Shown: positions 4,775-56,731 of the stretch, one piece after another
How the letters are laid out: each line of letters starts with the position of its first letter
How positions within the stretch are numbered: position 1 is the stretch's first letter
NCBI GenBank assembly: GCA_965199685.1
Contig: OZ241323.1
Coordinates: 801,940-865,939 of the forward strand
Direction of reading: 5' to 3'
From: an uncultured candidatus Porisulfidus sp.
GTDB lineage: Bacteria > Pseudomonadota > Gammaproteobacteria > Poriferisulfidales > Oxydemutatoraceae
Length of the DNA: 64,000 bases
The notes under the pieces: generated by a model
The model's input: the letters and a program-made list of their open reading frames with translations, nothing else
What the model was told of the DNA's origin: nothing
Database searches by the model: none
Made by a program: the position numbers and the translations under genes

Positions 4775-4809
4775 TATATGAAAGTACGGGTTTGCAATCA
4801 ACGAGCAAT

Positions 4810-4883
4810 GCCGAGGTAGCACAATGGTAGTGCAGCGCACTTGTAATGCGAAGGTTGGAGGTTCAAGTCCTCTCCTCGGCACC
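4810..4883 (+). tRNA. tRNA-Thr (anticodon UGU)
   Basis: Cloverleaf: acceptor GCCGAGG/CCTCGGC, anticodon loop CTTGTAA, T-loop GGTTCAAGTCC; resembles E. coli thrU. Confidence 0.85.
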
Positions 4884-4890
4884 GTGCAAA

Positions 4891-5227
4891 GGCGAGTTGG
4901 TCTATAAGCCGGGTTCTGTTTTGGCAATCATCCATCTGGGATATATGTCGCCATATACCTCTAGCGGTCTACCCGAGAGTCTGCGCGGGCAACGCTTAAC
5001 GCTCTCCTATTCAACCTTGCTCCGAGTGGGGTTTACCTTGCCACCAATGTTACCATCAGTGCGGTGTGCTCTTACCACGCCTTTTCACCCTTACCTCTGA
5101 AACGAGGCGGTATCTTTTCTGTGGCACTTTCCATGGACTCGCATCCTCCAGACGTTATCTGGCACTCTGCCCTGCGGAGCCCGGACTTTCCTCTATGTAT
5201 TGAGCATAGCGACTGCCCGACCAACTC
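4891..5227 (-). ncRNA. rnpB: RNase P RNA (bacterial type A)
   Basis: Reverse complement contains AGGAAAGTCCGGGCTCC (P4), GGTAAGGGTGAAA..GGTAAGAGCACACCGC, ACAGAACCCGGCTTA and a P1 pairing GAGTTGGTC/GACCAACTC. Confidence 0.85.
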
Positions 5228-5239
5228 TGTGTCAGCATA

Positions 5240-5655
5240 ACATATTTGGAGTCTTGTTGAAAAAGTACTGTGATTGCCGAAACGTAACCGCTTGCGCCAT
5301 TGAATTTAAGAAAACGGTAGGGGCGGACTTATATGTCCACCCTACGGTACCGTTCTGTACTACTGCAACCGCCACGCGCTATCAAATTATGGTTTCCATG
5401 AATTAGATGTCGTACGATTTCGTTTGTGCGGGTGCGTTGCGTTTCGGGAGGGCATGTGAGGCTGTTGAAAAAGTATCTGCATTAGTACATTCCCCTCCTT
5501 TGGAGGGGTGGCAGGCGAAGCCTGACGGGGTGGTTGTTAAGGTTCTGAACACTGTTACGCCGATTGACCTACTGGCTCAATCGGCGGTTCTGTTTTTCAA
5601 CAGCTCCATGTTAGCCCTCCTCTACGGTGCCTGAAATACTTTTTCAATAGCCCCA
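5240..5655. repeat. Composite MITE-like repeat cluster; 5461-5629 is a near-complete about 170-bp element with terminal inverted ends gctgttgaaaaagtat ... ttttcaacagc plus internal hairpins
   Basis: About 94% identical to 49315-49482; ORFs 5200..5406 and 5407..5634 lie within it and are judged spurious. Confidence 0.75.
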
Positions 5656-5697
5656 CGCGTCGTGCGTCGGCAGGGTGCGTTGCGAAGGTATTGTAAA

Positions 5698-6189
5698 ATG
5701 AACACCATGACGATAAAAAAAGATATCACCATTATTTCCGGCGGACAAACAGGTGTGGATAGGGCAGCTTTGGATGTTGCATTAGAGTTGGGGATATCCT
5801 GTGGCGGCTGGTGTCCTGAGGGACGGCTAGCCGAAGATGGTGCGATTGCTCAACACTACCCGCTAAAAGAACTTGTCGGAGGAGATTATGTTCAACGCAC
5901 TATGCACAATGTGTTGGACAGCGATGCGACCCTGGTTATCTATTTTGATCAATTGGAAGGCGGCACCGAATTAACGGTTGAATTTTGCAATCAAAAAGCC
6001 AAGCCAGTTTTAGTGATAGATGCAAACGCCGTACAGTTTTCATCGGCAGTTGATAAGATGCTAGACTTTACTCGCCGACATCAACTTGAGATTCTGAATA
6101 TCGCCGGACCTCGTGCCAGCAAACAACCCGCTGCTTACGCATATACCAAAGCATTATTGACCGATTATTTGCAAAAACTCCAGCAATAA
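5698..6189 (+). CDS. SLOG-superfamily protein (putative molybdenum-carrier-like, PF12694-type)
   Basis: ISGGQTGVDRAALDVALELGI..GGWCPEGRLAEDG motif block recalled from MoCo-carrier-like proteins; start chosen at MNTMTIKKD. Confidence 0.5.
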   Translation: MNTMTIKKDITIISGGQTGVDRAALDVALELGISCGGWCPEGRLAEDGAIAQHYPLKELVGGDYVQRTMHNVLDSDATLVIYFDQLEGGTELTVEFCNQKAKPVLVIDANAVQFSSAVDKMLDFTRRHQLEILNIAGPRASKQPAAYAYTKALLTDYLQKLQQ

Positions 6190-6209
6190 AAGCAAAAGAT
6201 ATAGCAAAA

Positions 6210-6515
6210 ATGGATTCGATAAAATTATTGCAACGTCTCAAACGCGAACACGATTACTATAATCGTTTTTTCACATTATCACTGGCTGCCGTTATATGCT
6301 TGATTGGACTTGCTTTTTGGTGGGCGGAGATTCCTTTGTTGGATGAATATAAAGTGATTGTCGGTTTGATAATGATTTTTCTGGCGTTTGTTTTTTATAA
6401 TATCCCTTATCTTGTGTATCGCTTGTTGCGCAGACGCTATCGCAATGACGAAGCGGTGAAGCAGTTGATGGGTAAGCGGTGGTATTTCTATAAAAGCAAT
6501 ATCATGAACCGCTAG
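6210..6515 (+). CDS. Hypothetical small membrane protein
   Basis: 101-aa ORF with two predicted TM helices; no recognisable family. Confidence 0.3.
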   Translation: MDSIKLLQRLKREHDYYNRFFTLSLAAVICLIGLAFWWAEIPLLDEYKVIVGLIMIFLAFVFYNIPYLVYRLLRRRYRNDEAVKQLMGKRWYFYKSNIMNR

Positions 6516-7068
6516 GCTTTCTATATGTAGCAACAACAAAGTAGACGAGAAAAATAATTGCTAGCCAGCCGGCGGTTGCCCAGCCATTATAATAATCGTA
6601 CGGCCCGACCAAGAAATGCCAATCTGATTGTTCGTTGAAATAAGATAATTTTTTATCCACCTTGAGCGTTAATATCCATCCGCTGTGTATGCCTATGCAA
6701 GCCCATACATTTGTGGTCTTTAGGCGCACGATACCTAGCAATACACCAGCTAAAAAAAGACTGAGTGCGGTTGAGAAATAGTTGCCGTCCCAATGCATTG
6801 CGATACTGTCGGCAAGTATCACCGAACCATAATACCAAGGTGCATCGGCGGGTAATTCGCTTCCCTTGATGCGTGCAAAATGTATCACTGCGAAGAACAA
6901 GGCAGTCAATAGTATTGCGGATAGCGGTGCTTTATCTTTTAGAAAACCCTCAAACAAAATCCCTCTGAAAAAAGTTTCCTCTATTAAAGAAACCACAAAG
7001 GCGGCAAGCAATAACGATGCCAACTTAACTGCAAAGGCATCCCATGCAAAGTCCGGTGATAGATTCAA
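6502..7068 (-). CDS. CPBP (CAAX protease/Abi) family intramembrane metalloprotease, catalytic part
   Basis: EETFFRG (motif 1, EExxxR) and downstream His-containing TM helices; it starts at TTG and lacks the N-terminal TM helices. Confidence 0.6.
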   Translation of the reverse strand: MNLSPDFAWDAFAVKLASLLLAAFVVSLIEETFFRGILFEGFLKDKAPLSAILLTALFFAVIHFARIKGSELPADAPWYYGSVILADSIAMHWDGNYFSTALSLFLAGVLLGIVRLKTTNVWACIGIHSGWILTLKVDKKLSYFNEQSDWHFLVGPYDYYNGWATAGWLAIIFLVYFVVATYRKPSGS

Positions 7069-7415
7069 ACCCGAAGATCCAACAAATGGAACAACCCGGT
7101 GACAGGCAACATCATCGCTATGCCTACAATGAAACCGTAGAACAATAATCCGCGTCGTGTTTGGTTCCCGTTTACCGACCAGCCTACGTTCTTATGATCT
7201 AGCAAGCCCTTGAACTTGAGTATTGCGACGATGACCAATAAAATTGCCAGCATCGCCAGCCGTTTCCCGAAATTATCGAAATCAATTAGACCATCGATGC
7301 CTAACAATTTATAGAGTGGTTGCGCGACCAAGCTACTGCCTAGGATTGCAAGCAATACGGAAAATAGAAAAAGCAGAAATAAGCGCATCGAGTCGGTTAT
7401 CGTTGGAATAATCAA
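7065..7415 (-). CDS. N-terminal transmembrane segment of the same CPBP protease (split/frameshifted)
   Basis: 116-aa polytopic ORF ending in a TTGA overlap with the downstream CPBP catalytic ORF. Confidence 0.4.
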   Translation of the reverse strand: MIIPTITDSMRLFLLFLFSVLLAILGSSLVAQPLYKLLGIDGLIDFDNFGKRLAMLAILLVIVAILKFKGLLDHKNVGWSVNGNQTRRGLLFYGFIVGIAMMLPVTGLFHLLDLRV

Positions 7416-7440
7416 TTATAATAAGCTATTTTTAAGCGAT

Positions 7441-7523
7441 GCGGAAGTGGCGAAATTGGTAGACGCGCTGGCTTTAGGTGCCAGTGGGATATTCCCTTGA
7501 GAGTTCGAGTCTCTCCTTCCGCA
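7441..7523 (+). tRNA. tRNA-Leu (anticodon UAG), long variable arm
   Basis: Acceptor GCGGAAG/CTTCCGC, anticodon loop TTTAGGT, T-loop GAGTTCGAGTCTCTC. Confidence 0.85.
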
Positions 7524-7565
7524 TAGTTTTAAGGCTATAATAATCGTTCAAAACATACCAGTTTA

Positions 7566-8852
7566 ATGAATTGTAGAATAGAAGAAATAGATACTTTCGG
7601 GCGCAAACTTTATATTGATATCCCAGCGGCGGATTTTAACGAGCGGGTTAACGCAAAGCTCCGCAAACTCTCTACCACCGCCAATATCAAAGGCTTTAGG
7701 CCGGGTAAAGTACCGCTGGAGATAATCAAGCGTTATTACGGAGAGGAGGTAGAAGACGATGCTATTGCTGCCTTAATACGTGAGAACTATACAAGAGCTG
7801 TGGAGCAACATTCTTTTCATACCATGAGCATTCCTTCCTTTGAAGATGTGGAGGTGGATACCGACAAAGGCATTAAATGCACGGCTTATGTAGAAGTGCT
7901 ACCTGATTTGCAGTTAAATACTTATGAGGATATCACGATTGAAAAGCCTTTTTGCGATATTACTGAGGCGGATGTAGATGCTATGGTGGAACGAGTGCGT
8001 AAGAGTAATCCTAAATGGCAGGTCAAAGACGGACCGGCATGCGTTGACGACAGGGTTACTATTGATATGAGCCGAGCAGGAACCGACAAGGAACCAATTT
8101 TTGACGATAAAAGCTATGTCTTAGGTTCAGAGCCATTGGGCAAGTATCTTGATACACAGATTGAAAATATGCGTGCCGGTGAAGAGAAGGAAATTAGTTT
8201 TAAGGAGCACACTAGTGAAGAACCTGTGGACTCGGATAGAGTAGAGCGATATACCGTGCATTTGAAGTTGGTAGAGAAACCAATTTTGCCTGAACTGGAC
8301 GACGATTTTTTCAAAGTGTGCGGCATCAAAGAGGGTGGGTTGGATGCTTTGCGTAGCTCGTTGCTTGAAGGCATGGAGGCGGAAGCGAAAAGAAAAATCT
8401 CGCAATTATATTGCACCAATATAGAAAATGTAATGCTGACTCACGCTAACATAAAAGCACCTCCAGCGATTTTGAAGGAGGAAATTGAAAAAATCAAGAA
8501 GCGCTTGGTTGATGATGGTATGAGTTATTCCGACAGAGGTATATCCGATGAGTTACTCGAAAAAACTGGCAAACGTCAAGTTTGTTTGAATATCCTGTTT
8601 ACTTACATTAATAAAAAAAATAACTTCAAGGCCGATCGTAACGCATGCGAAGCTAAAATTGACCAATTAGCACAAGATTATAAGGAGCCTGAGCGTATAA
8701 GAAGCCACTACCGTAGCAATGCAAATGCCTACCGCCAAATTGAAGATATGGTGGTTCAAGACAAAATCATAGATTATGTAGCCAAAGAAGCAAGAACAAG
8801 CGAGAAAAAATACTCGTTTTACGAGCTTATGGGTATGGAACAAACACAATAG
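7566..8852 (+). CDS. tig: Trigger factor
   Basis: 428 aa; GFRPGKVP motif; co-linear with E. coli Tig. Confidence 0.9.
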   Translation: MNCRIEEIDTFGRKLYIDIPAADFNERVNAKLRKLSTTANIKGFRPGKVPLEIIKRYYGEEVEDDAIAALIRENYTRAVEQHSFHTMSIPSFEDVEVDTDKGIKCTAYVEVLPDLQLNTYEDITIEKPFCDITEADVDAMVERVRKSNPKWQVKDGPACVDDRVTIDMSRAGTDKEPIFDDKSYVLGSEPLGKYLDTQIENMRAGEEKEISFKEHTSEEPVDSDRVERYTVHLKLVEKPILPELDDDFFKVCGIKEGGLDALRSSLLEGMEAEAKRKISQLYCTNIENVMLTHANIKAPPAILKEEIEKIKKRLVDDGMSYSDRGISDELLEKTGKRQVCLNILFTYINKKNNFKADRNACEAKIDQLAQDYKEPERIRSHYRSNANAYRQIEDMVVQDKIIDYVAKEARTSEKKYSFYELMGMEQTQ

Positions 8853-14607: not shown

Positions 14608-15492
14608 ATGGAAATAATCGGCACTAAAAAAATCGCTAAAGAAACCATAAACTTATTTCCTTCTCAGGTTGCATACAACAAACTGGGTGCACCTCATTGT
14701 GTCTTTTTAGGGGATTGCTTAAATGTGCTAAGCCAATCTATTTCTGCCGATAGTGTTGATTTAGTTTTTACTTCTCCACCCTATGCAGACCAACGAAAAA
14801 ATAATTATGGAGGAATTGCTCCGGCTGATTATGTTGATTGGTTTTTACCAAGAGCGAAAGAAATCAAACGAGTTTTAAGGCCGTCAGGTTCTTTTATTCT
14901 GAATATCAAGGAGAAGGTGGTAAACGGGGAGAGACATACCTATGTCTTGGATTTGATTATCGGTATGCGTGAGCAAGGCTGGCAGTGGGTTGAGGAATAT
15001 ATCTGGCATAAAAAAAACTGTTATCCAGGGAAGTGGCCGAATCGATTTAGAGATAGCTGGGAAAGGCTCTTGCATTTTACTCTGTCTAAAAACTTCAAAA
15101 TGAGACAAGAGGCTGTTATGGTTCCTACCGGAGACTGGGCAGAAAACCGCCTAAAGAAATTATCTCAAACTGACAAAAGTCGAGATTTGTCCAAGAATAA
15201 AAATGGATTCGGAAAAAAAGTATCTAATTGGGTCGGGAGAAAACAAGCCTATCCTACGAATGTTATTCATCTTGCTACGGAATGCAATTATAGAGGACAT
15301 CCTGCTACATTTCCTGTGGAATTACCCTCGTGGTTTATAAAGTTATTTACTGATGAGGGAGATATGATTTTAGATCCTTTTGTCGGGTCAGGCACGACAT
15401 CGCTTGCCGCCTTGAATCTAAATCGTTGTTCTATAGGTATTGATATTCATGAAGAATTCTGTTTACTGACCCAAGAGAGACTTCTGAAGTGA
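14608..15492 (+). CDS. Type II DNA methyltransferase, beta-class (N4-cytosine or N6-adenine)
   Basis: Motif IV FTSPPY upstream of motif I DPFVGSGTT; AT-rich; 4-nt overlap with the downstream gene. Confidence 0.8.
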   Translation: MEIIGTKKIAKETINLFPSQVAYNKLGAPHCVFLGDCLNVLSQSISADSVDLVFTSPPYADQRKNNYGGIAPADYVDWFLPRAKEIKRVLRPSGSFILNIKEKVVNGERHTYVLDLIIGMREQGWQWVEEYIWHKKNCYPGKWPNRFRDSWERLLHFTLSKNFKMRQEAVMVPTGDWAENRLKKLSQTDKSRDLSKNKNGFGKKVSNWVGRKQAYPTNVIHLATECNYRGHPATFPVELPSWFIKLFTDEGDMILDPFVGSGTTSLAALNLNRCSIGIDIHEEFCLLTQERLLK

Positions 15493-16238
15493 CGAATCAA
15501 CCGGTATGGTGGAACACTGCTAAAGTAGAGATTGATGACATTATATTTGGCTTTTCTGATGCATTAAAAATCAAGTTGATGAAGCTTGGTGATAATCCGA
15601 TGTCTCTATTAAGCAAAAAGAATCCATTTTTACTGAGGATTAGAAGTACGGAAAATGTAAATACTTTTGCACAGAATATGATTAGAGCATTTTTGTCCTC
15701 CAGCGAGGAAACTAGATTTGGTTCTATTTTTGAGGGGTGTGCAGAAATAGTTTGTAAGTATGGACGAAATGGGCAAAAATCTGGAATTGAAGGCATAGAT
15801 ATTGAGTATTCAGAAAATACTACAAAGCGAGTATTAGTGCAAATTAAATCTGGGAAGAACTGGGGAAATGCGTCGCAGAAAAAGCAATTAAAAAATTATT
15901 TTGAAAAAGCTTCGAAAATTCTTAAGCAAAGTACTTCTATTAAAGATGTACGTTGCATTGAGGGAATTTGTTACGGCAAAAACGAACATAGACACTTTGG
16001 TAATCAAGAACGTATCGTCGGTTCACTCTTTTGGAGTGAAATTTCAGGTTGGGATAATTTATATTTCGCTTTAATGGATATAATCGGTAATCATGCGAGC
16101 AATGGATTACGTGATTTAGAAAACGAAATAATAAAGAAAATCATAGCCTTTATGCAGGATAAAAATTTATTAATTGATGAGGATAAAATTAATTGGAATA
16201 AGCTACTTTACCTTTTAAGTGGAACTGATTGCAGCTAA
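15489..16238 (+). CDS. Putative type II restriction endonuclease (PD-(D/E)XK)
   Basis: Operonic with the methyltransferase (ATGA overlap); candidate catalytic block EGIDIEY...VQIKSG. Confidence 0.5.
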   Translation: MTNQPVWWNTAKVEIDDIIFGFSDALKIKLMKLGDNPMSLLSKKNPFLLRIRSTENVNTFAQNMIRAFLSSSEETRFGSIFEGCAEIVCKYGRNGQKSGIEGIDIEYSENTTKRVLVQIKSGKNWGNASQKKQLKNYFEKASKILKQSTSIKDVRCIEGICYGKNEHRHFGNQERIVGSLFWSEISGWDNLYFALMDIIGNHASNGLRDLENEIIKKIIAFMQDKNLLIDEDKINWNKLLYLLSGTDCS

Positions 16239-20494: not shown

Positions 20495-21160
20495 ATGGAT
20501 CAAATCAACATGCTAGACGAACGGGGCGATATCATGAGTAGCCCAAGAGAAGATCTAACAATTTCTCTAAAAGACCGAAAATTCGGAACTGTATTGGCTG
20601 ATCCACCATGGCGATTTGCCAACCGGACAGGGAAAGTGGCTCCAGAACATCGTCGTCTTTTGCGTTACAGAACATTATCATTTGAGGAAATACAAGCATT
20701 GCCTGTGGCCAATTTGATGGCGGATCAATCACATTGCTATTTGTGGGTTCCAAACGCCCTGTTGCCGTATGGTCTTGCGACGCTGAAGGCATGGGGGTTT
20801 GAGTATAAAACTAATTTAATTTGGCACAAAGTGAGGAAAGACGGTGGATCGGACGGGCGCGGTGTTGGGTTCTATTTTCGCAACGTTACCGAAATCATTC
20901 TTTTTGGTGTCAGAGGGAAAAACGTCAGAACCTTGCCCCCAGGTCGCAGTCAGGTTAATCTCATTGCCAGCCGTAAGCGAGAGCATTCTCGCAAGCCAGA
21001 TGAGCAATATGATTTGATTGAGAGCTGTAGTTGGGGTCCGTATCTAGAATTGTTTGGACGCGGTACACGAGAGGGATGGACGGTGTGGGGCAATCAGTCT
21101 GCGGAATATCAACCTGATTGGCCGACGTATCAGTACAATTCTACCGTTAATGTCCCATGA
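20495..21160 (+). CDS. MT-A70 family N6-adenine DNA methyltransferase
   Basis: ADPPWRF catalytic motif; AT-rich; ATGA overlap with the downstream gene. Confidence 0.75.
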   Translation: MDQINMLDERGDIMSSPREDLTISLKDRKFGTVLADPPWRFANRTGKVAPEHRRLLRYRTLSFEEIQALPVANLMADQSHCYLWVPNALLPYGLATLKAWGFEYKTNLIWHKVRKDGGSDGRGVGFYFRNVTEIILFGVRGKNVRTLPPGRSQVNLIASRKREHSRKPDEQYDLIESCSWGPYLELFGRGTREGWTVWGNQSAEYQPDWPTYQYNSTVNVP

Positions 21161-21891
21161 AAACCGTTCAAGACCTTGAACAGGCTGGGTTTGATGTTCA
21201 GGCTGTCAATCACGCTATGGCTGTGCTGACTAAGGACTTTCCTGAACCGTTGAGTGAATTATGCGCAACCCTTCTTGATATTCAGATTGCCGATGTCGAA
21301 CTGATCAAAGGCGGAGGTGGCGAGGCTCCGGCAACCCAAAGATTGCGAAGAGCATTGACAGAACTGGGTTGGCTGAAACGCAAGATTGTCATTAGAAAGA
21401 CGGTTGATCAAGTTGAACGACACTCGATTACTCATGAGATTGACCATATGCGGAAAACGTGCAACGGTTCCATTGCACTGGAGATTGAATGGAACAACAA
21501 AGACCCGTTCTTTGATCGTGACCTTGATAATTTCCAGCGTCTACACAGCGAAGGTGCTATAAGTGTTGGAGTGATTGTCACTCGTGGGAGTTCATTGCAA
21601 GAAAACATGATTCAGATCGTTACGGGATGTGCAATCAGGTGCAATATTCAAAAATTTGAGGATGTGGAGACAGAATACGGAGTGACACCGACACCAAGGC
21701 AACGTAATCTGGTCAAGTCGGATGGTGATAATTTTGCTAAAGAATGGGCTAAACGATTTGTTCAAGACAAGTTTGGACAAGCAACCACGCACTGGAACAA
21801 ATTGCAAGCCATGATAAGCCGAGGAGTTGGAAATCCCTGTCCGCTACTTCTGATTGGAATACCCGTTACTGTTGTTTATCATAAAGATTGA
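21157..21891 (+). CDS. Type II restriction endonuclease, BamHI/BglII-like fold
   Basis: SIALEIEWNNKD...GAISVGVIVTRG resembles the BamHI E-x-E catalytic block (GMEFETGN...EIDLAIIL). Confidence 0.5.
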   Translation: MKTVQDLEQAGFDVQAVNHAMAVLTKDFPEPLSELCATLLDIQIADVELIKGGGGEAPATQRLRRALTELGWLKRKIVIRKTVDQVERHSITHEIDHMRKTCNGSIALEIEWNNKDPFFDRDLDNFQRLHSEGAISVGVIVTRGSSLQENMIQIVTGCAIRCNIQKFEDVETEYGVTPTPRQRNLVKSDGDNFAKEWAKRFVQDKFGQATTHWNKLQAMISRGVGNPCPLLLIGIPVTVVYHKD

Positions 21892-27860: not shown

Positions 27861-29116
27861 GGGAATTATATACCATTCTGCACAAAGCTATAATAAAATA
27901 AACCAATGAAAGCAAACAGAACAATCTGCTACCACTTATACCCAGCGACTTATAGAAAGCACCAGCAATTACATGGCACTGCCGGAGCGTGTCGGCATGT
28001 GTGGAATCATTTTGTGGGAAAGTTAAAAGACGAATACGAGTACTATGGGGAAAGCAAGTTTAAGTACTATACGCTGTGTCCTCAATTCACTACTTTGCGA
28101 AAGTATAGTCGTACCTGGTTGCAGGATTATTCAGCTAATATCGTAAAGATGTCATTAAAACCAATAGAGACAGCCTATAAAGGCTACTTTAAGGGAATAT
28201 GCGGATTACCAAAGTTTCACGGAAAATACACATACAATCCGTCATTTCCTATAGATAAGGAAACTGCAAAAATATCTGGTGAGCATATATACATTCAGAA
28301 AATAGGCTGGATTAAGTTTGCTGGTAGCGACAAATATAAAGGTGAGAAGTTTGTATCAGGTCAGGTCAAATATGAGTGTGGTAACTGGTATGCTTATATT
28401 GTCTATGAGATAGAAGTATCAGAAAAACCACAGTTTCTAACGACAGTAGGGCTGGATAGAAACTGCGGTCAGGTTGCTTTATCAGACGGCACTATTCATC
28501 ACGGGCCAGACATTCAGAAAAAGATAGTGAAGCGAAAGCGTTATCAACGGAAGTATGCAAGAGGGAAGCAAGGGAGTAATAGGCAAAAAGTTGCTAAGTA
28601 CAAACTGCAGAAAGCCTACAAAGCGGAGCGTAATGCAGGAGCTAACTGGTATCATCAAACCAGCAAGTTAATCGCAGACAAGTATGATGTTGTGTATATA
28701 GAAGAGTTGAAAACCAAAAGCATGACGAAGTCAGCAAAGGGAACGATAACAACTCCTGGCACAAATGTAAAGCAGAAAGCAGGTTTGAATAGGTCAATCC
28801 TAGCAAGCAGTTGGTATAAGCTAGAACAATGCTTGTCCTACAAAGCCCATGTAGAGAAAGTGCCAGCACACTACACCAGCCAAACCTGTGATAAGTGCAG
28901 CAACGTAGATAAAGCAAACCGCAAGACCCAATCAATTTTCAAGTGTCAACAATGTGGACACGAGGACAATGCAGATGTGAATGCTGCATTAAACATTTTG
29001 GCGGCTGGGAATACCGCAACTGGACGTGGAGATGGCGACATTAGTCGGTCTGTGAAGCGTCAAAAAATAGCAAGTAAAGCACGGAGCTTATCTGTGCAGA
29101 ATTGTATATAATTCCC
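27861..29116 (+). mobile_element. tnpB-only insertion element bounded by 23-bp terminal inverted repeats (GGGAATTATATAC[C/A]ATTCTGCAC) and flanked by an 8-bp direct repeat CAATCAAT (27853-27860 and 29117-29124)
   Basis: Left TIR 27861-27883; the reverse complement of the right end 29094-29116 matches it 22/23; identical 8-mers abut both ends. Confidence 0.7.
27906..29111 (+). CDS. tnpB: TnpB (IS200/IS605 OrfB family RNA-guided nuclease)
   Basis: N-terminus ICYHLYPATY..CRHVWNHF; RuvC-I GLDRN, RuvC-II YIEEL, zinc finger CDKC..CQQC, RuvC-III NADVNAALNI. Confidence 0.85.
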   Translation: MKANRTICYHLYPATYRKHQQLHGTAGACRHVWNHFVGKLKDEYEYYGESKFKYYTLCPQFTTLRKYSRTWLQDYSANIVKMSLKPIETAYKGYFKGICGLPKFHGKYTYNPSFPIDKETAKISGEHIYIQKIGWIKFAGSDKYKGEKFVSGQVKYECGNWYAYIVYEIEVSEKPQFLTTVGLDRNCGQVALSDGTIHHGPDIQKKIVKRKRYQRKYARGKQGSNRQKVAKYKLQKAYKAERNAGANWYHQTSKLIADKYDVVYIEELKTKSMTKSAKGTITTPGTNVKQKAGLNRSILASSWYKLEQCLSYKAHVEKVPAHYTSQTCDKCSNVDKANRKTQSIFKCQQCGHEDNADVNAALNILAAGNTATGRGDGDISRSVKRQKIASKARSLSVQNCI

Positions 29117-52350: not shown

Positions 52351-53394
52351 ATGTTGGAACTACAAAACCTAAGCGTTGCGATTGATAAACAAACCATCGT
52401 TAAAAATGCCTCTTTGAATATTAAAACCGGCAAAATAGGGTGTTTGTTGGGACCTAGCGGTAGCGGTAAAAGCACTTTGCTTAGATGTGTCGCAGGCTTT
52501 CATCGTGCGTTGTCGGGTTCTGTTTATTTAGAGAATAATCTGATAGAAAGTCCGCAAAAACGGGTTGCCGTGGAAGCTCGGCGTATTGGCGTTATGTTTC
52601 AAGACTATGCATTGTTTCCACATCTAACTGTTGAGGAGAATATTGGCTTTGGTATTCATTCTATGGGACGACGCGAGTATCAAGTGCGCCTCAAGCGCAT
52701 GCTCAAACTAACTGAGCTTAGTGTTTATTCGGACTGCTATCCCAACGAATTGTCGGGTGGACAGCAACAACGCGTGGCATTGGCACGAGCACTTGCACCA
52801 CTACCTAAACTCCTATTATTGGATGAGCCTTTTTCTAATGTAGACAGCCAACTCAAGCTACAGATGGTACAAGAAATGAGAGAACTATTGATTGACATGA
52901 ACATTACCACTCTGATGGTAAGCCACGACCAAAGCGAGTCGCTGGCAATGTCAGATAGTTTGGGTTTGATGCTAGAAGGGCAGATATTGCAATGGAGCAA
53001 CACTTATGATTTTTATCATCGCCCGGTATCTCGCCAAGTTGCAACCTTCATAGGAATGGGTACTATGCTGCGCGGCACGCTCACCGAAAATAAAACCATC
53101 AAAACCGCACTGGGTGAATTGCTTCCTACACCGGACACCGTGCTTCCGCAAAGCAAAGAAGTTGATGTGCTAATTCGTCCCGACGATATAATCCACGATG
53201 ACGACAGCGACTTTCAAGCAACGATAAAGAAAAAAGAATTTAGGGGCGCACAGTTTCTTTATTTATTGCATCTAAAAAACGGTGATTATGTTCAGTGTTT
53301 TGCTCCCAGCCATCACGATCATAGCATTGATGAACAAATCGGCATTCGTGTAGATATGGAACATGTAGTATGCTTCCCAGCCGATCAATCGTAG
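52351..53394 (+). CDS. fbpC: Fe(3+) ABC transporter ATP-binding protein
   Basis: Walker A GPSGSGKST, signature LSGGQQQR; start at MLELQNL. Confidence 0.85.
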   Translation: MLELQNLSVAIDKQTIVKNASLNIKTGKIGCLLGPSGSGKSTLLRCVAGFHRALSGSVYLENNLIESPQKRVAVEARRIGVMFQDYALFPHLTVEENIGFGIHSMGRREYQVRLKRMLKLTELSVYSDCYPNELSGGQQQRVALARALAPLPKLLLLDEPFSNVDSQLKLQMVQEMRELLIDMNITTLMVSHDQSESLAMSDSLGLMLEGQILQWSNTYDFYHRPVSRQVATFIGMGTMLRGTLTENKTIKTALGELLPTPDTVLPQSKEVDVLIRPDDIIHDDDSDFQATIKKKEFRGAQFLYLLHLKNGDYVQCFAPSHHDHSIDEQIGIRVDMEHVVCFPADQS

Positions 53395-53397
53395 TGG

Positions 53398-53450
53398 TTG
53401 TGCCCATGCAATGGCATTACTTTTTCAACAGTCCCAAGCGTGATCCGTTA
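53398..53450. repeat. Truncated MITE end module (actttttcaacagtccc)
   Basis: Matches the terminal module of the repeat family. Confidence 0.5.
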
Positions 53451-53546
53451 GATTTAGTGAAGCGTAATTGTCTTCTAGTAGCCCTGCAAACGCAACATGG
53501 AGTTTAGCTGAGAAATTAAAAGCAAGGCAAATTGTCAAGCCAAAGG

Positions 53547-53559
53547 CTGATATAATCAG
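53547..53559 (+). promoter_or_regulatory. Extended -10 promoter element (TGaTATAAT) embedded in the palindrome CTGATATAATCAG, upstream of the small ORF at 53603
   Basis: TGn-TATAAT; the dyad symmetry suggests an operator-like site. Confidence 0.3.
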
Positions 53560-53602
53560 CTGACTGGTCAATAAAAGAGACGATTCAAATGGAGATAGGG
53601 TT

Positions 53603-53779
53603 ATGCGCTGCTTAGAATGTGGCAAAGAAGTTATACATTTAGACAATGAATATTTGGCACGATGTTGTGGCTTGACGCTACAAGAATACGCACTGCGCCA
53701 TAAATTGCCGTTGGATATACTCGTACCATCTTCACAAATCAATGCCACCGCCGACTTTGTTGTGGAGTCAACACATTGA
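53603..53779 (+). CDS. Small Cys-rich protein (CxxC...CC plus possible HTH), candidate R-M controller-like ORF
   Basis: 58-codon ORF with RBS GGAG 8 nt upstream; ends at a TGA that abuts the A9 tract and the methyltransferase frame. Confidence 0.35.
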   Translation: MRCLECGKEVIHLDNEYLARCCGLTLQEYALRHKLPLDILVPSSQINATADFVVESTH

Positions 53780-54670
53780 AAAAAAAACGCTATATATCAA
53801 GGAAATTCTCTAGATTTAATTCAAGGTGTAGAAAATGAATCCGTCCATTTAATCCTGAGTGATATTCCTTATGGGATTGGCACTGATGAGTGGGATATTC
53901 TCCATGATAATAGTAATTCGGCTTATTTAGGATCAAGCAATTCACAAAAAAAAGCTGGTAATATTTTTGATAAAAGAAGAAAACCGATAAATGGTTGGTG
54001 TAGAGCGGATCGTGAGATACCTAGAAAATATCAGGAATGGTGTTCAACATGGTCTCCCGAATGGTTTAGAGTATTAAAACCGGGAGCTAGTGTTTTCATA
54101 TTTTCTGGCAGAAGGCTTTCACATAGATGTGTTTGTGCTATGGAGGATGCCGGTTTCATTTTTAAGGATGCACTGGCATGGATAAAAACTCAGGCACCTC
54201 ACCGAGCGCAAAGATTAAGCGTGGTTTACTCTAGACGCGGCGATGAAAAATCCTCCCTAGCATGGGATGGATGGAGGATTGGTAACCTGCGTCCGATGTA
54301 TGAACCAATACTATGGTTTACCAAGCCATATAAAATTGGAGGCACAATAGCAGATAATGTATTAAAGCATGATGTCGGCGCATACAACGAAAAAGCATTT
54401 ATGAAATACGTTGATCAGCCTAATAATGTCATTAGTTGTAGTTTAGGAAAGAATGAGTCCGGCTTTCATCCGACTCAAAAATCTATTAGATTAATGCAGA
54501 TACTAATTGAATTGACTACAAAAAAAGATCAACTGGTTCTTGATCCTTTTGCTGGGAGTGGATCAACGTTGATTGCAGCAAAATTACTGGAACGTCAATA
54601 TCTGGGTTTTGAGCTAGATGCGAATTATGTAAACATTTGTAGAGACAGGCTGGTTCCAGATTTGTTTTGA
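53780..54670 (+). CDS. Beta-class DNA methyltransferase lacking an in-frame start codon as sequenced (possible phase-variable or decaying gene)
   Basis: In-frame translation from 53780 gives IYQGNSLDLIQ...SVHLILSDIPYG (motif IV) and a C-terminal DPFAGSGST (motif I); the first in-frame ATG is at 54140, downstream of motif IV. Confidence 0.65.
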   Translation, partial: KKNAIYQGNSLDLIQGVENESVHLILSDIPYGIGTDEWDILHDNSNSAYLGSSNSQKKAGNIFDKRRKPINGWCRADREIPRKYQEWCSTWSPEWFRVLKPGASVFIFSGRRLSHRCVCAMEDAGFIFKDALAWIKTQAPHRAQRLSVVYSRRGDEKSSLAWDGWRIGNLRPMYEPILWFTKPYKIGGTIADNVLKHDVGAYNEKAFMKYVDQPNNVISCSLGKNESGFHPTQKSIRLMQILIELTTKKDQLVLDPFAGSGSTLIAAKLLERQYLGFELDANYVNICRDRLVPDLF

Positions 54671-54673
54671 AAA

Positions 54674-55583
54674 ATGAAACAAATTAGTCAAAAGGCAATT
54701 AAGCGGAGAAAGCACTGGGTTAAGAAAATTGAATCTATTAGCGAAGATTTTAGTTCGGATACGGCTAGAATCCAAGAGGATCTGATGATTGAAATCAAAC
54801 GCGAAGGTATAAGCTCTTTGATTGATCATTTACGACTTTGTGCTGCAATTCCCGAGTCATGTGGCCACAATTCAACCGAAGAAAAATTATACTCCAAGTA
54901 CACGGATATTCTTATATCCGCCAGTTTCTCTCAAATAGGTCTGAAAAGTATAGTACTAGAATCAAGAGGCGACTCTGCAGATATTGAGGTAATTGCAAAT
55001 GTATAGTTTTGTAGCCGATGCAAAGGTCTTTCGTTTAAGCAGAACTGCAAAGAATCAGAAGGATTTCAAGATACAAGCAATGGATAACTGGAAGTTTGGA
55101 AAGCCGTTTGCAATGGTAGTTTGTCCACTTTATCAAATCCCATCAAAAAATAGTCAAATATATCAACAAGCAAGCGCGAGAAATGTTTGCATATTTTCAT
55201 ATTCTCATCTAGCGGTATTGGTATAGTTTGTTGAAGCTTATAGTAAAAACTCAGGAGAGAAATTGCTTTATGAAATCTTTGAAACAGTTAATTCAATGAA
55301 CCCCAGCAAGAGTGCAATTACATACTGGAATTTAATCAATAGAAAAATGTTATCTCATTCCGACCTTATACAAAATATTTGGAAAAAAGAGAAAATTGCA
55401 ACATTAGAAAGCATAAAAATTGCCAAAGTTGACGCATTGACATACTATGCAAAAGAGCGTGCAAAGATTATAAAAATGAGTAGAGATGAAGCGATTTCAA
55501 AGCTACTGGACGTGAGCAAGATAGAGAATCATGTTCAACAGGTAGAAGCTATATCAAACAATAATTTAATGGATTTAACATGA
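54674..55583 (+). pseudogene. Probable restriction endonuclease remnant in three ORF fragments (54674-55006, 54993-55226, 55263-55583)
   Basis: Combined length of about 303 codons immediately downstream of the methyltransferase; frame change near 55000 and an in-frame TAG at 55224; AT-rich. Confidence 0.35.
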
Positions 55584-55667
55584 AAGTATTAGAAGAAAAG
55601 GATATTAAAATTTGAGACTAAAATAGGGGAAGGTCAATATCAAATTGTCGATTGATTTTAATATATG

Positions 55668-55945
55668 GGGCTGTTGAAAAAGTGGTATTCCCCTCCAAAG
55701 GAGGGGAACGTACTAATGCAGATACTTTTTCAACAGTCCCATATTGTGTTCGTTAGAAACAGTAAGTATACCAGAATCAATCGGAGTGACACTGTGCAGA
55801 ACCTCAACAACCACTTCGTCAGATAGAACTGCCGATTGAGCCGGTAAGTCAATCGGCGTGACACTGTGCAGAGCTTCAACATGATTGCTAAACACATGTA
55901 TTACAAAATGCATAGGCCTGCCACCCCTCCAGAGGAAGGGAATTA
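55668..55945. repeat. Composite MITE-like repeat cluster
   Basis: Modules gggctgttgaaaaagt, cccctccaaaggagggg, gccgattgagccggtaagtcaatcggc, gcataggcctgccacccctcc; overlaps the fabI stop codon. Confidence 0.75.
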
Positions 55946-56731
55946 GTCAGTGGTTTTATACATGCCCAGCAAATGATAACCCGAATCTACATGTATGATT
56001 TCGCCGGTAATTGCTCGTGCTAGATCGGAACATAAAAAAGCACCTACATTTCCGACTTCTTCTATAGTAACATTTCTGCCTAGCGGAGCATTTTTTTCTA
56101 CATGATTCAGCATCTCGCGAAAACCAGATATGCCCGATGCTGCCAAAGTTTTTATAGGTCCTGCCGAGATTGCATTGACGCGTATTCCGTCGCTACCGAG
56201 TCCTGCTGCCAAATAACGTACCGCAGCTTCCAAACTGGCTTTCGCCAACCCCATCACATTGTAGTTCGGTACGACTTTTTCTGCTCCTAGATAACTTAAG
56301 GTTAACATTGCCGCTTCGCCGCCTTGCATCATCGTTCTTGCACGTTGTGCAAGTGCAACCAAGCTGTAGCAACTGGCTTCGTGTGCAGTGTTAAAGCCTT
56401 GTCTGGTACTTTGCTCTATGAATTCGCCTGCCAACTCCTCACGCGGAGCATAGGCGATGGAATGTACTAATATATCCAAACGCTGCCATTTTTGCTTTAG
56501 GTGTTTGAATAATGCATCTATTTCATCATCGTTTTGAGCATCGCACGGCAGTATCATATCGGCGTTGCACGCCTCGCCAAGTTTTTCTACTCTGCTTTTC
56601 AATTTTTCGTTTTGATAGCTCAGCGCAATATGTGCGCCTTCGCGCGCCAGACTTTGGGTAATACCCCAAGCGATAGAGTGTTTAGTTGCAACTCCTGTTA
56701 CCAAAGCATATTTATTTGCTAAGATACCCAC
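55943..56731 (-). CDS. fabI: Enoyl-[acyl-carrier-protein] reductase (NADH)
   Basis: SDR fold, Y-x6-K; GTG start. Confidence 0.9.
   Translation of the reverse strand: MGILANKYALVTGVATKHSIAWGITQSLAREGAHIALSYQNEKLKSRVEKLGEACNADMILPCDAQNDDEIDALFKHLKQKWQRLDILVHSIAYAPREELAGEFIEQSTRQGFNTAHEASCYSLVALAQRARTMMQGGEAAMLTLSYLGAEKVVPNYNVMGLAKASLEAAVRYLAAGLGSDGIRVNAISAGPIKTLAASGISGFREMLNHVEKNAPLGRNVTIEEVGNVGAFLCSDLARAITGEIIHVDSGYHLLGMYKTTD

Follow-up and report, generated by a model that had tools for sequence, protein, structure and literature searches.

A HindIII-family restriction-modification cassette, very probably mobile and recently disabled, in DNA related to the sponge symbiont Candidatus Porisulfidus

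In type II restriction-modification (R-M) systems, an active restriction endonuclease (REase, gene R) without its DNA methyltransferase (MTase, gene M) is lethal, which is the logic of post-segregational killing. The closest described system to the one studied here is HindIII of Haemophilus influenzae Rd (PDB 2E52/3A4K; REase family PF09518). In HindIII, the main-chain carbonyl of Ala109 binds metal A, and a loop of residues Glu86-Asn90 has been described (PMC4321485). Furthermore, insertions of R-M systems with long target duplication have been defined by the presence of R and M in an insert of less than 20 kb and by a duplication of more than 30 bp (Furuta, Abe & Kobayashi 2010; PMC2853133). 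We analyzed a 64-kb stretch of DNA (the window), which contains three R-M systems. Two of them are type II pairs that are apparently intact: an N6_N4 MTase with an EcoO109I-like REase (14608-16238), and an MT-A70 MTase with a BglII-like REase (20495-21891). The third is a cassette whose best genome match, with 94.5% identity, is L003, a MAG labelled uncultured Candidatus Porisulfidus sp. Candidatus Porisulfidus is a sponge-symbiont gammaproteobacterium that has served as outgroup to SUP05.

Re-reading of the window bore out the positions that a preliminary description of this DNA had given for the methylase stop of the third system and for three short ORFs downstream of it. All genes, relics and lesions of this cassette lie on the + strand. 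The methylase ends at TGA 54668-54670, and the ATG at 54674, in the methylase frame, opens R fragment 1 (54674-55006; 110 aa), which is closed by TAG 55004-55006. R fragment 2 (54993-55226; 77 aa) lies in the next frame and ends at TAG 55224-55226, although its frame resumes past this codon and runs to TGA 55581-55583. This last part, R fragment 3 (55227-55583), comprises the C-terminal 118 codons and the stop, and its first usable start codon in the ORF listing is TTG 55263. When the frame change and the stop are bridged, the repaired R has 303 codons, exactly the length found in intact relatives and the one that had been proposed as the size of a type II REase.

The repaired R matches the profile PF09518 (RE_HindIII) with 319.4 bits and E=2.5e-95, residues 14-293 aligning to profile positions 2-283 of 285, far above the curated cut-off of 25.3 bits. 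It also matches the PADLOC REase_II model PDLC03490 (E=6.1e-96), and no NCBIfam model matched R. According to phmmer, residues 16-292 are homologous to the HindIII chains 2e52_A and 3a4k_A in PDB (E~5e-34), and this homology to a solved enzyme with a PD-(D/E)XK fold is decisive for a nuclease fold of the reconstructed protein. Analyzed separately, fragments 1, 2 and 3 match PF09518 at positions 2-96 (E=2.2e-29), 98-172 (E=5.1e-36) and 176-284 (E=1.7e-18) of 285, respectively, a consecutive arrangement that is far beyond chance. Since these segments do not overlap, assignment of the ORFs to separate small-protein families is ruled out; all three match PF09518. By these profile matches the three ORFs are pieces of a single broken type II REase gene, as had been suggested before; the gene belongs to the HindIII family, and intact alleles are found in close relatives. 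A functional gene would be a single open frame of about 300 codons, which in the window is interrupted at 55000-55001 and at 55224. The R of the window is a pseudogene of family PF09518 and no working gene, because a 2-bp loss at the first position and the TAG at the second break the frame.

Residue numbering of HindIII was anchored on Ala109 and the Glu86-Asn90 loop (PMC4321485). On this basis, D103 of the repaired R, located in fragment 1, corresponds to Asp93 of HindIII, and D116-A117-K118, located in fragment 2, corresponds to Asp108-Ala109-Lys110; the Glu and Arg of the loop are also conserved. Fragment 1 also carries E61, the equivalent of Glu51, which we take to be a catalytic residue of HindIII. 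The codons for E61, D103 and D116-A117-K118 are all present in the window and invariant among the aligned relatives. As the lesion at 55000-55001 falls between D103 and D116, the PD-(D/E)XK site is split across two fragments. The PD-(D/E)XK-like segment noticed earlier in the first ORF, SRGDSADIEVIANV, holds only the first catalytic Asp (D103); the (D/E)XK part belongs to the second ORF.

Lesions were called by base-by-base comparison with L001, a 3.6-kb contig of a sponge metagenome, and from a multiple alignment that comprised eight cassettes. Window positions 53021-56604 are collinear with L001 (97.9% DNA identity), which shares the flanking genes, encoding an ABC-transporter ATPase and FabI, and has both M and R intact, with a 99%-identical R. 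Intact R relatives of 303 aa are six in number, with 87-99% amino acid identity (search matches of 99, 95, 92, 91, and 87%), and a scan of JGI metagenomes found no relative above 61% identity. The first lesion, at 55000-55001, changes the AAT codon of Asn110 to G, which removes a net 2 bp and shifts the frame; the sequence is GCAAATAATTATAGT in intact relatives and GCAAATG--TATAGT in the window. It gives the exact site of the frame change that had been placed near 54990-55006, between the first two ORFs. The second lesion, 74 codons downstream at codon 184 (55224-55226), is a nonsense change of CAG (Gln) to TAG; this is the in-frame TAG reported between the second and third ORFs, and relatives have CAG there. 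Both R lesions, as well as a nine-A tract (A9) at the start of M, are derived alleles, each found in the window alone among the eight cassettes. A template switch to the inverted 9-mer at 53632-53640 was considered as the source of the AAT to G change and dropped, because this 9-mer is present five times in the window and a chance match is plausible.

It is hardly conceivable that the lesions are bypassed by programmed recoding, or that the fragments assemble into a split enzyme, so that a low level of endonuclease is made. With an ATG at 54999, inside the last codons of the first ORF, fragment 2 could be translated by coupling; however, all close relatives have an uninterrupted R of 303 aa and both lesions are unique to the window, no slippery motif is present at 55000, the catalytic residues are divided (D103 versus D116/K118), and M is out of frame, hence any active R would be lethal. 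A further R defect was found in the cassette of L086 (L086 1122-2032; 88% identity), which comes from the same metagenome sample as L001: its R has independently lost one base from an A5 run at codon 224 and is thereby frameshifted, and its M is intact with A8. R loss thus recurs in this cassette clade.

The gene adjacent to R encodes a beta-class N6/N4 DNA methyltransferase (53776-54670), of 297 aa when intact. After frame correction it matches PF01555 (E=3.6e-42) and PADLOC MTase_II (E=1.8e-76), and it shows the motifs SDIPYG close to the N-terminus and FAGSGS close to the C-terminus. In relatives, M starts at a TTG that shares bases with the stop codon of a 58-aa ORF (TTGA) and precedes eight A; seven of the seven relatives have A8 where the window has A9 (53779-53787). 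The window M is consequently frameshifted (+1) at codons two to four: translation from TTG 53776 reads MKKKRYISRKFSRFNSRCRK* and this frame closes after 20 codons, and no ATG, GTG or TTG start in the M frame was found in the window sequence between A9 and SDIPYG. A complete system would have an adjacent methyltransferase gene with an intact frame, whereas the PF01555 gene that adjoins R is out of frame. The proposal that R-M decay is underway fits a broken HindIII-family R beside M with intact alleles in close relatives; the further proposal that the methylase was retained or gated after the REase was lost needs refinement, as M itself is also out of frame.

Because A9 puts M out of frame, either the whole cassette is dead or its methylase is in the OFF phase. 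The A9 allele may reflect a genuine loss or a phase-OFF state, or else a consensus error in the homopolymer. Runs of nine or more A promote RNA polymerase slippage, and transcriptional slippage on the tract could restore some M expression. A phase-variable orphan methylase, in which R is dead for good, A8/A9 is a reversible switch caught OFF in the window and slippage may leak in-frame mRNA, is unlikely. Such a switch would agree with a homopolymer of eight to nine A within the first four codons that is length-polymorphic among the eight cassettes, with an R already inactive, which is the precondition for switching M off safely, and with a dN/dS of M of 0.04 versus L001 and no other sign of M decay. 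Nevertheless, A8 is found in seven of the eight sequences, the exception being the window, where R is dead, while the R-defective L086 keeps A8, so that there is no evidence of repeated switching; furthermore, the tract merely encodes Lys-Lys-Asn.

Across the clade, pairwise dN/dS (Nei-Gojobori) ranges between 0.06 and 0.23 for R and between 0.03 and 0.07 for M, low values which indicate that both genes are normally maintained by purifying selection. Compared with L001, the window has 28 substitutions (4.4%) in 53826-54464, inside M, and none across the next 1 kb apart from the R lesions, which are the sole differences in 54465-55489; this mosaic divergence points to recombination within the cassette. 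Over the whole of R, four synonymous changes and one nonsynonymous change separate the window from L001 besides the lesions. Only an Arg to His change near the C-terminus is unique to the window beyond the lesions, and unique synonymous changes are zero. As R is almost free of other changes, its knock-out is very recent. Two disabling hits in R without neutral companions exceed the expectation for passive decay, and the double hit may be due to selection against any R activity that was left, to a single mutagenic event or to an artefact. We regard it as quite improbable that the lesions are a selected shut-down, after which A8 was freed as a reversible switch and the cassette became a phase-variable orphan adenine methylase, a route that the cassette would repeat as in L086.

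That the true M-R pair is intact as in L001, and that the lesions are consensus errors or come from a chimeric strain consensus, is very unlikely. The M lesion is a one-base homopolymer change (A9 versus A8), which is typical of long-read consensus errors, the names of related MAG contigs state a low coverage (2x-8x), and another sample has an intact allele that shows no further difference over 1 kb. However, the R lesions are not homopolymer errors (a complex AAT to G change and a C to T transition), and three disabling errors all within one 2-kb cassette would be an odd coincidence. In addition, every other long gene of the window that was checked is full length with end-to-end Pfam coverage, among them those for DnaE (1177 aa), Lon (813 aa), transketolase, PGK, GAPDH, IMPDH, and GuaA, so the window is not an error-ridden assembly.

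The cassette is a 2144-bp unit (53467-55610) which contains relics of genes that formerly adjoined it, then M and then R, and has a GC content of 36.9%, compared with 44.2% in the window. The block recurs at 86-98% identity in seven relatives (L001, L002, L003, L083, L084, L085, and L086), with the same borders wherever the contigs extend to them, and is found in at least three contexts: between a uracil-DNA glycosylase (UDG) gene and a PTPS/QueD-domain gene in L002, L003 and L083; between the ATPase gene of an iron ABC transporter and fabI in the window and L001; and adjoining rnpB, cpYpsA and the trigger factor gene in L085 (L085 1-2152). The window region syntenic to the L085 site (4888-8852, within a comparison over 4775-8852) has no cassette. 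The presence of one cassette at three or more genomic sites in this symbiont clade shows that it is mobile, and no transposase or integrase was seen in or beside it.

Upstream of M, the cassette carries two gene remnants. The first (53468-53560) is a relic of the 3' end of a UDG gene, about 31 codons, which by tblastn is 87% identical to residues 145-175 of the L003 UDG; in L003, the matching stretch is the genuine end of that gene. The second is the 58-aa ORF (53603-53779), which according to BLASTP begins with the 51 initial codons of a PTPS/QueD-domain gene of 413 aa (L003 7231-8472; 48 of 51 residues identical) and ends with seven new codons. Its TGA stop and the TTG start of M share bases (TTGA). 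This stub region probably supplies the promoter and the translational coupling of M; in a promoter and terminator scan, promoter-like sites were no more numerous than the shuffled expectation. A weak ROS_MUCR match (E=7e-4, under cut-off) had suggested that the 58-aa ORF encodes a controller or a regulator similar to MucR, an idea that was rejected in view of its origin from the start of the PTPS-domain gene.

In L003, direct repeats of 297 bp of the UDG-PTPS junction (4787-5083 and 7087-7383), which are 98% identical, enclose the M-R pair, and a duplication of this junction also flanks M-R in L002 (246 bp) and L083 (216 bp). At the window cassette there is no flanking target duplication and a single arm is present. 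The single arm marks the window cassette as a secondary copy, which took one arm of the duplication along to a new locus.

Several repeats and one transposon-related gene were observed in the window. A 33-nt direct repeat lies between the cassette and fabI, in two copies (55777-55809 and 55849-55881) that are 91% identical and 72 bp apart. An intergenic repeat family with the terminus ACTTTTTCAACAGTCCCA has 13 copies in the window, against 0.08 expected, at positions 202, 5457, 5638, 12639, 19692, 26779, 27001, 44763, 49310, 49444, 53419, 55666, and 55724. It includes a full hairpin copy at 55663-55744, just 3' of the cassette, and a solo end at 53419-53436, just 5' of it; related copies are found in L002 and L003, and the family looks like a MITE or REP-type element. 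A TnpB / IS605 OrfB-type gene with Cas12f1-like TNB, OrfB_IS605 and HTH domains is located at 27906-29111.

The recognition site of the cassette is probably AAGCTT, on the basis of about 40% similarity to HindIII and of site avoidance. AAGCTT occurs five times in the window, against 17.7 expected, and eight times, against 33.4 expected (z=-4.4), in 116 kb obtained by pooling the window with 52 kb of related loci; in both sets, just one 6-bp palindrome is avoided more strongly. This avoidance fits a long exposure to a HindIII-like specificity, without proving it. TTTAAA is avoided more strongly than AAGCTT, with one occurrence in the window versus 21 expected, and two versus 41.5 when pooled with L002, L003, L083, and L085. 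This stronger avoidance suggests restriction pressure of the DraI type, exerted by a system that was not observed in the window.

Taken together, we consider it very probable that this is a mobile M-R cassette of the HindIII family whose R was very recently broken by two mutations and whose M is out of frame. According to this model, a HindIII-family type IIP cassette, with the order M then R, would be carried on the chromosome of a gammaproteobacterium that is associated with sponges and related to Candidatus Porisulfidus. The 2.1-kb unit would have come from an earlier insertion site between UDG and PTPS to the locus between the ABC-transporter ATPase gene and fabI, bringing along the promoter region of PTPS with its first 51 codons, with the start of M presumably coupled to this stub. 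R would then have been destroyed by two independent mutations, the complex -2 bp indel and the Gln to stop change, and M put out of frame afterwards or simultaneously by slippage of the A8 tract to A9. Since an active R without M is lethal, R was presumably lost before M. The cassette would now neither restrict DNA nor, judged at the DNA level, methylate it.

These results bear mainly on annotation: the three ORFs belong together as a single pseudogene of the HindIII family, the methylase needs a frameshift flag, and the 58-aa ORF should be recorded as a gene fragment and not as a regulator. The locus offers a clean and datable case of R-M death, with an intact sister allele that is identical over about 1 kb bar the lesions, and a second independent R loss is known in the same cassette clade (L086). 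Furthermore, it exemplifies the mobility of an R-M system that has no transposase, in sponge symbionts rich in such systems.

Compared with the HindIII system, the window R belongs to the same REase family over its full length and conserves the catalytic Glu, Asp and Asp-x-Lys, although the aligned core is just moderately similar. Its partner is likewise a beta-class N6/N4 adenine/cytosine MTase, and AAGCTT is avoided in DNA of the window host. The order of the cassette is M then R, whereas the HindIII-family loci compared more often have R before M on the same strand (32 versus 10). Unlike HindIII, the window system has an R interrupted twice and an M frameshifted, and is thus non-functional. 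With regard to insertions with long target duplication, the cassettes of L003, L002 and L083 agree with the definition of Furuta, Abe & Kobayashi 2010 (PMC2853133), while that of the window has one arm and lacks a flanking duplication of its own. As in phasevarion methyltransferases, a 5' coding homopolymer of strain-variable length sets the frame of M, but the window clade shows one length variant in eight sequences. Orphan methyltransferases retain M, whereas the M of the window is out of frame and leaves no working orphan at the DNA level. The window also resembles type II R-M systems in decay, in which R is lost first and M is kept: its point-lesioned R lies beside an M without amino acid decay, and within the clade L086 likewise combines a frameshifted R with an intact M. 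The decay seen in the window is of an ordinary and well-understood type of gene decay, in line with the current understanding of these systems, which it leaves unchanged.
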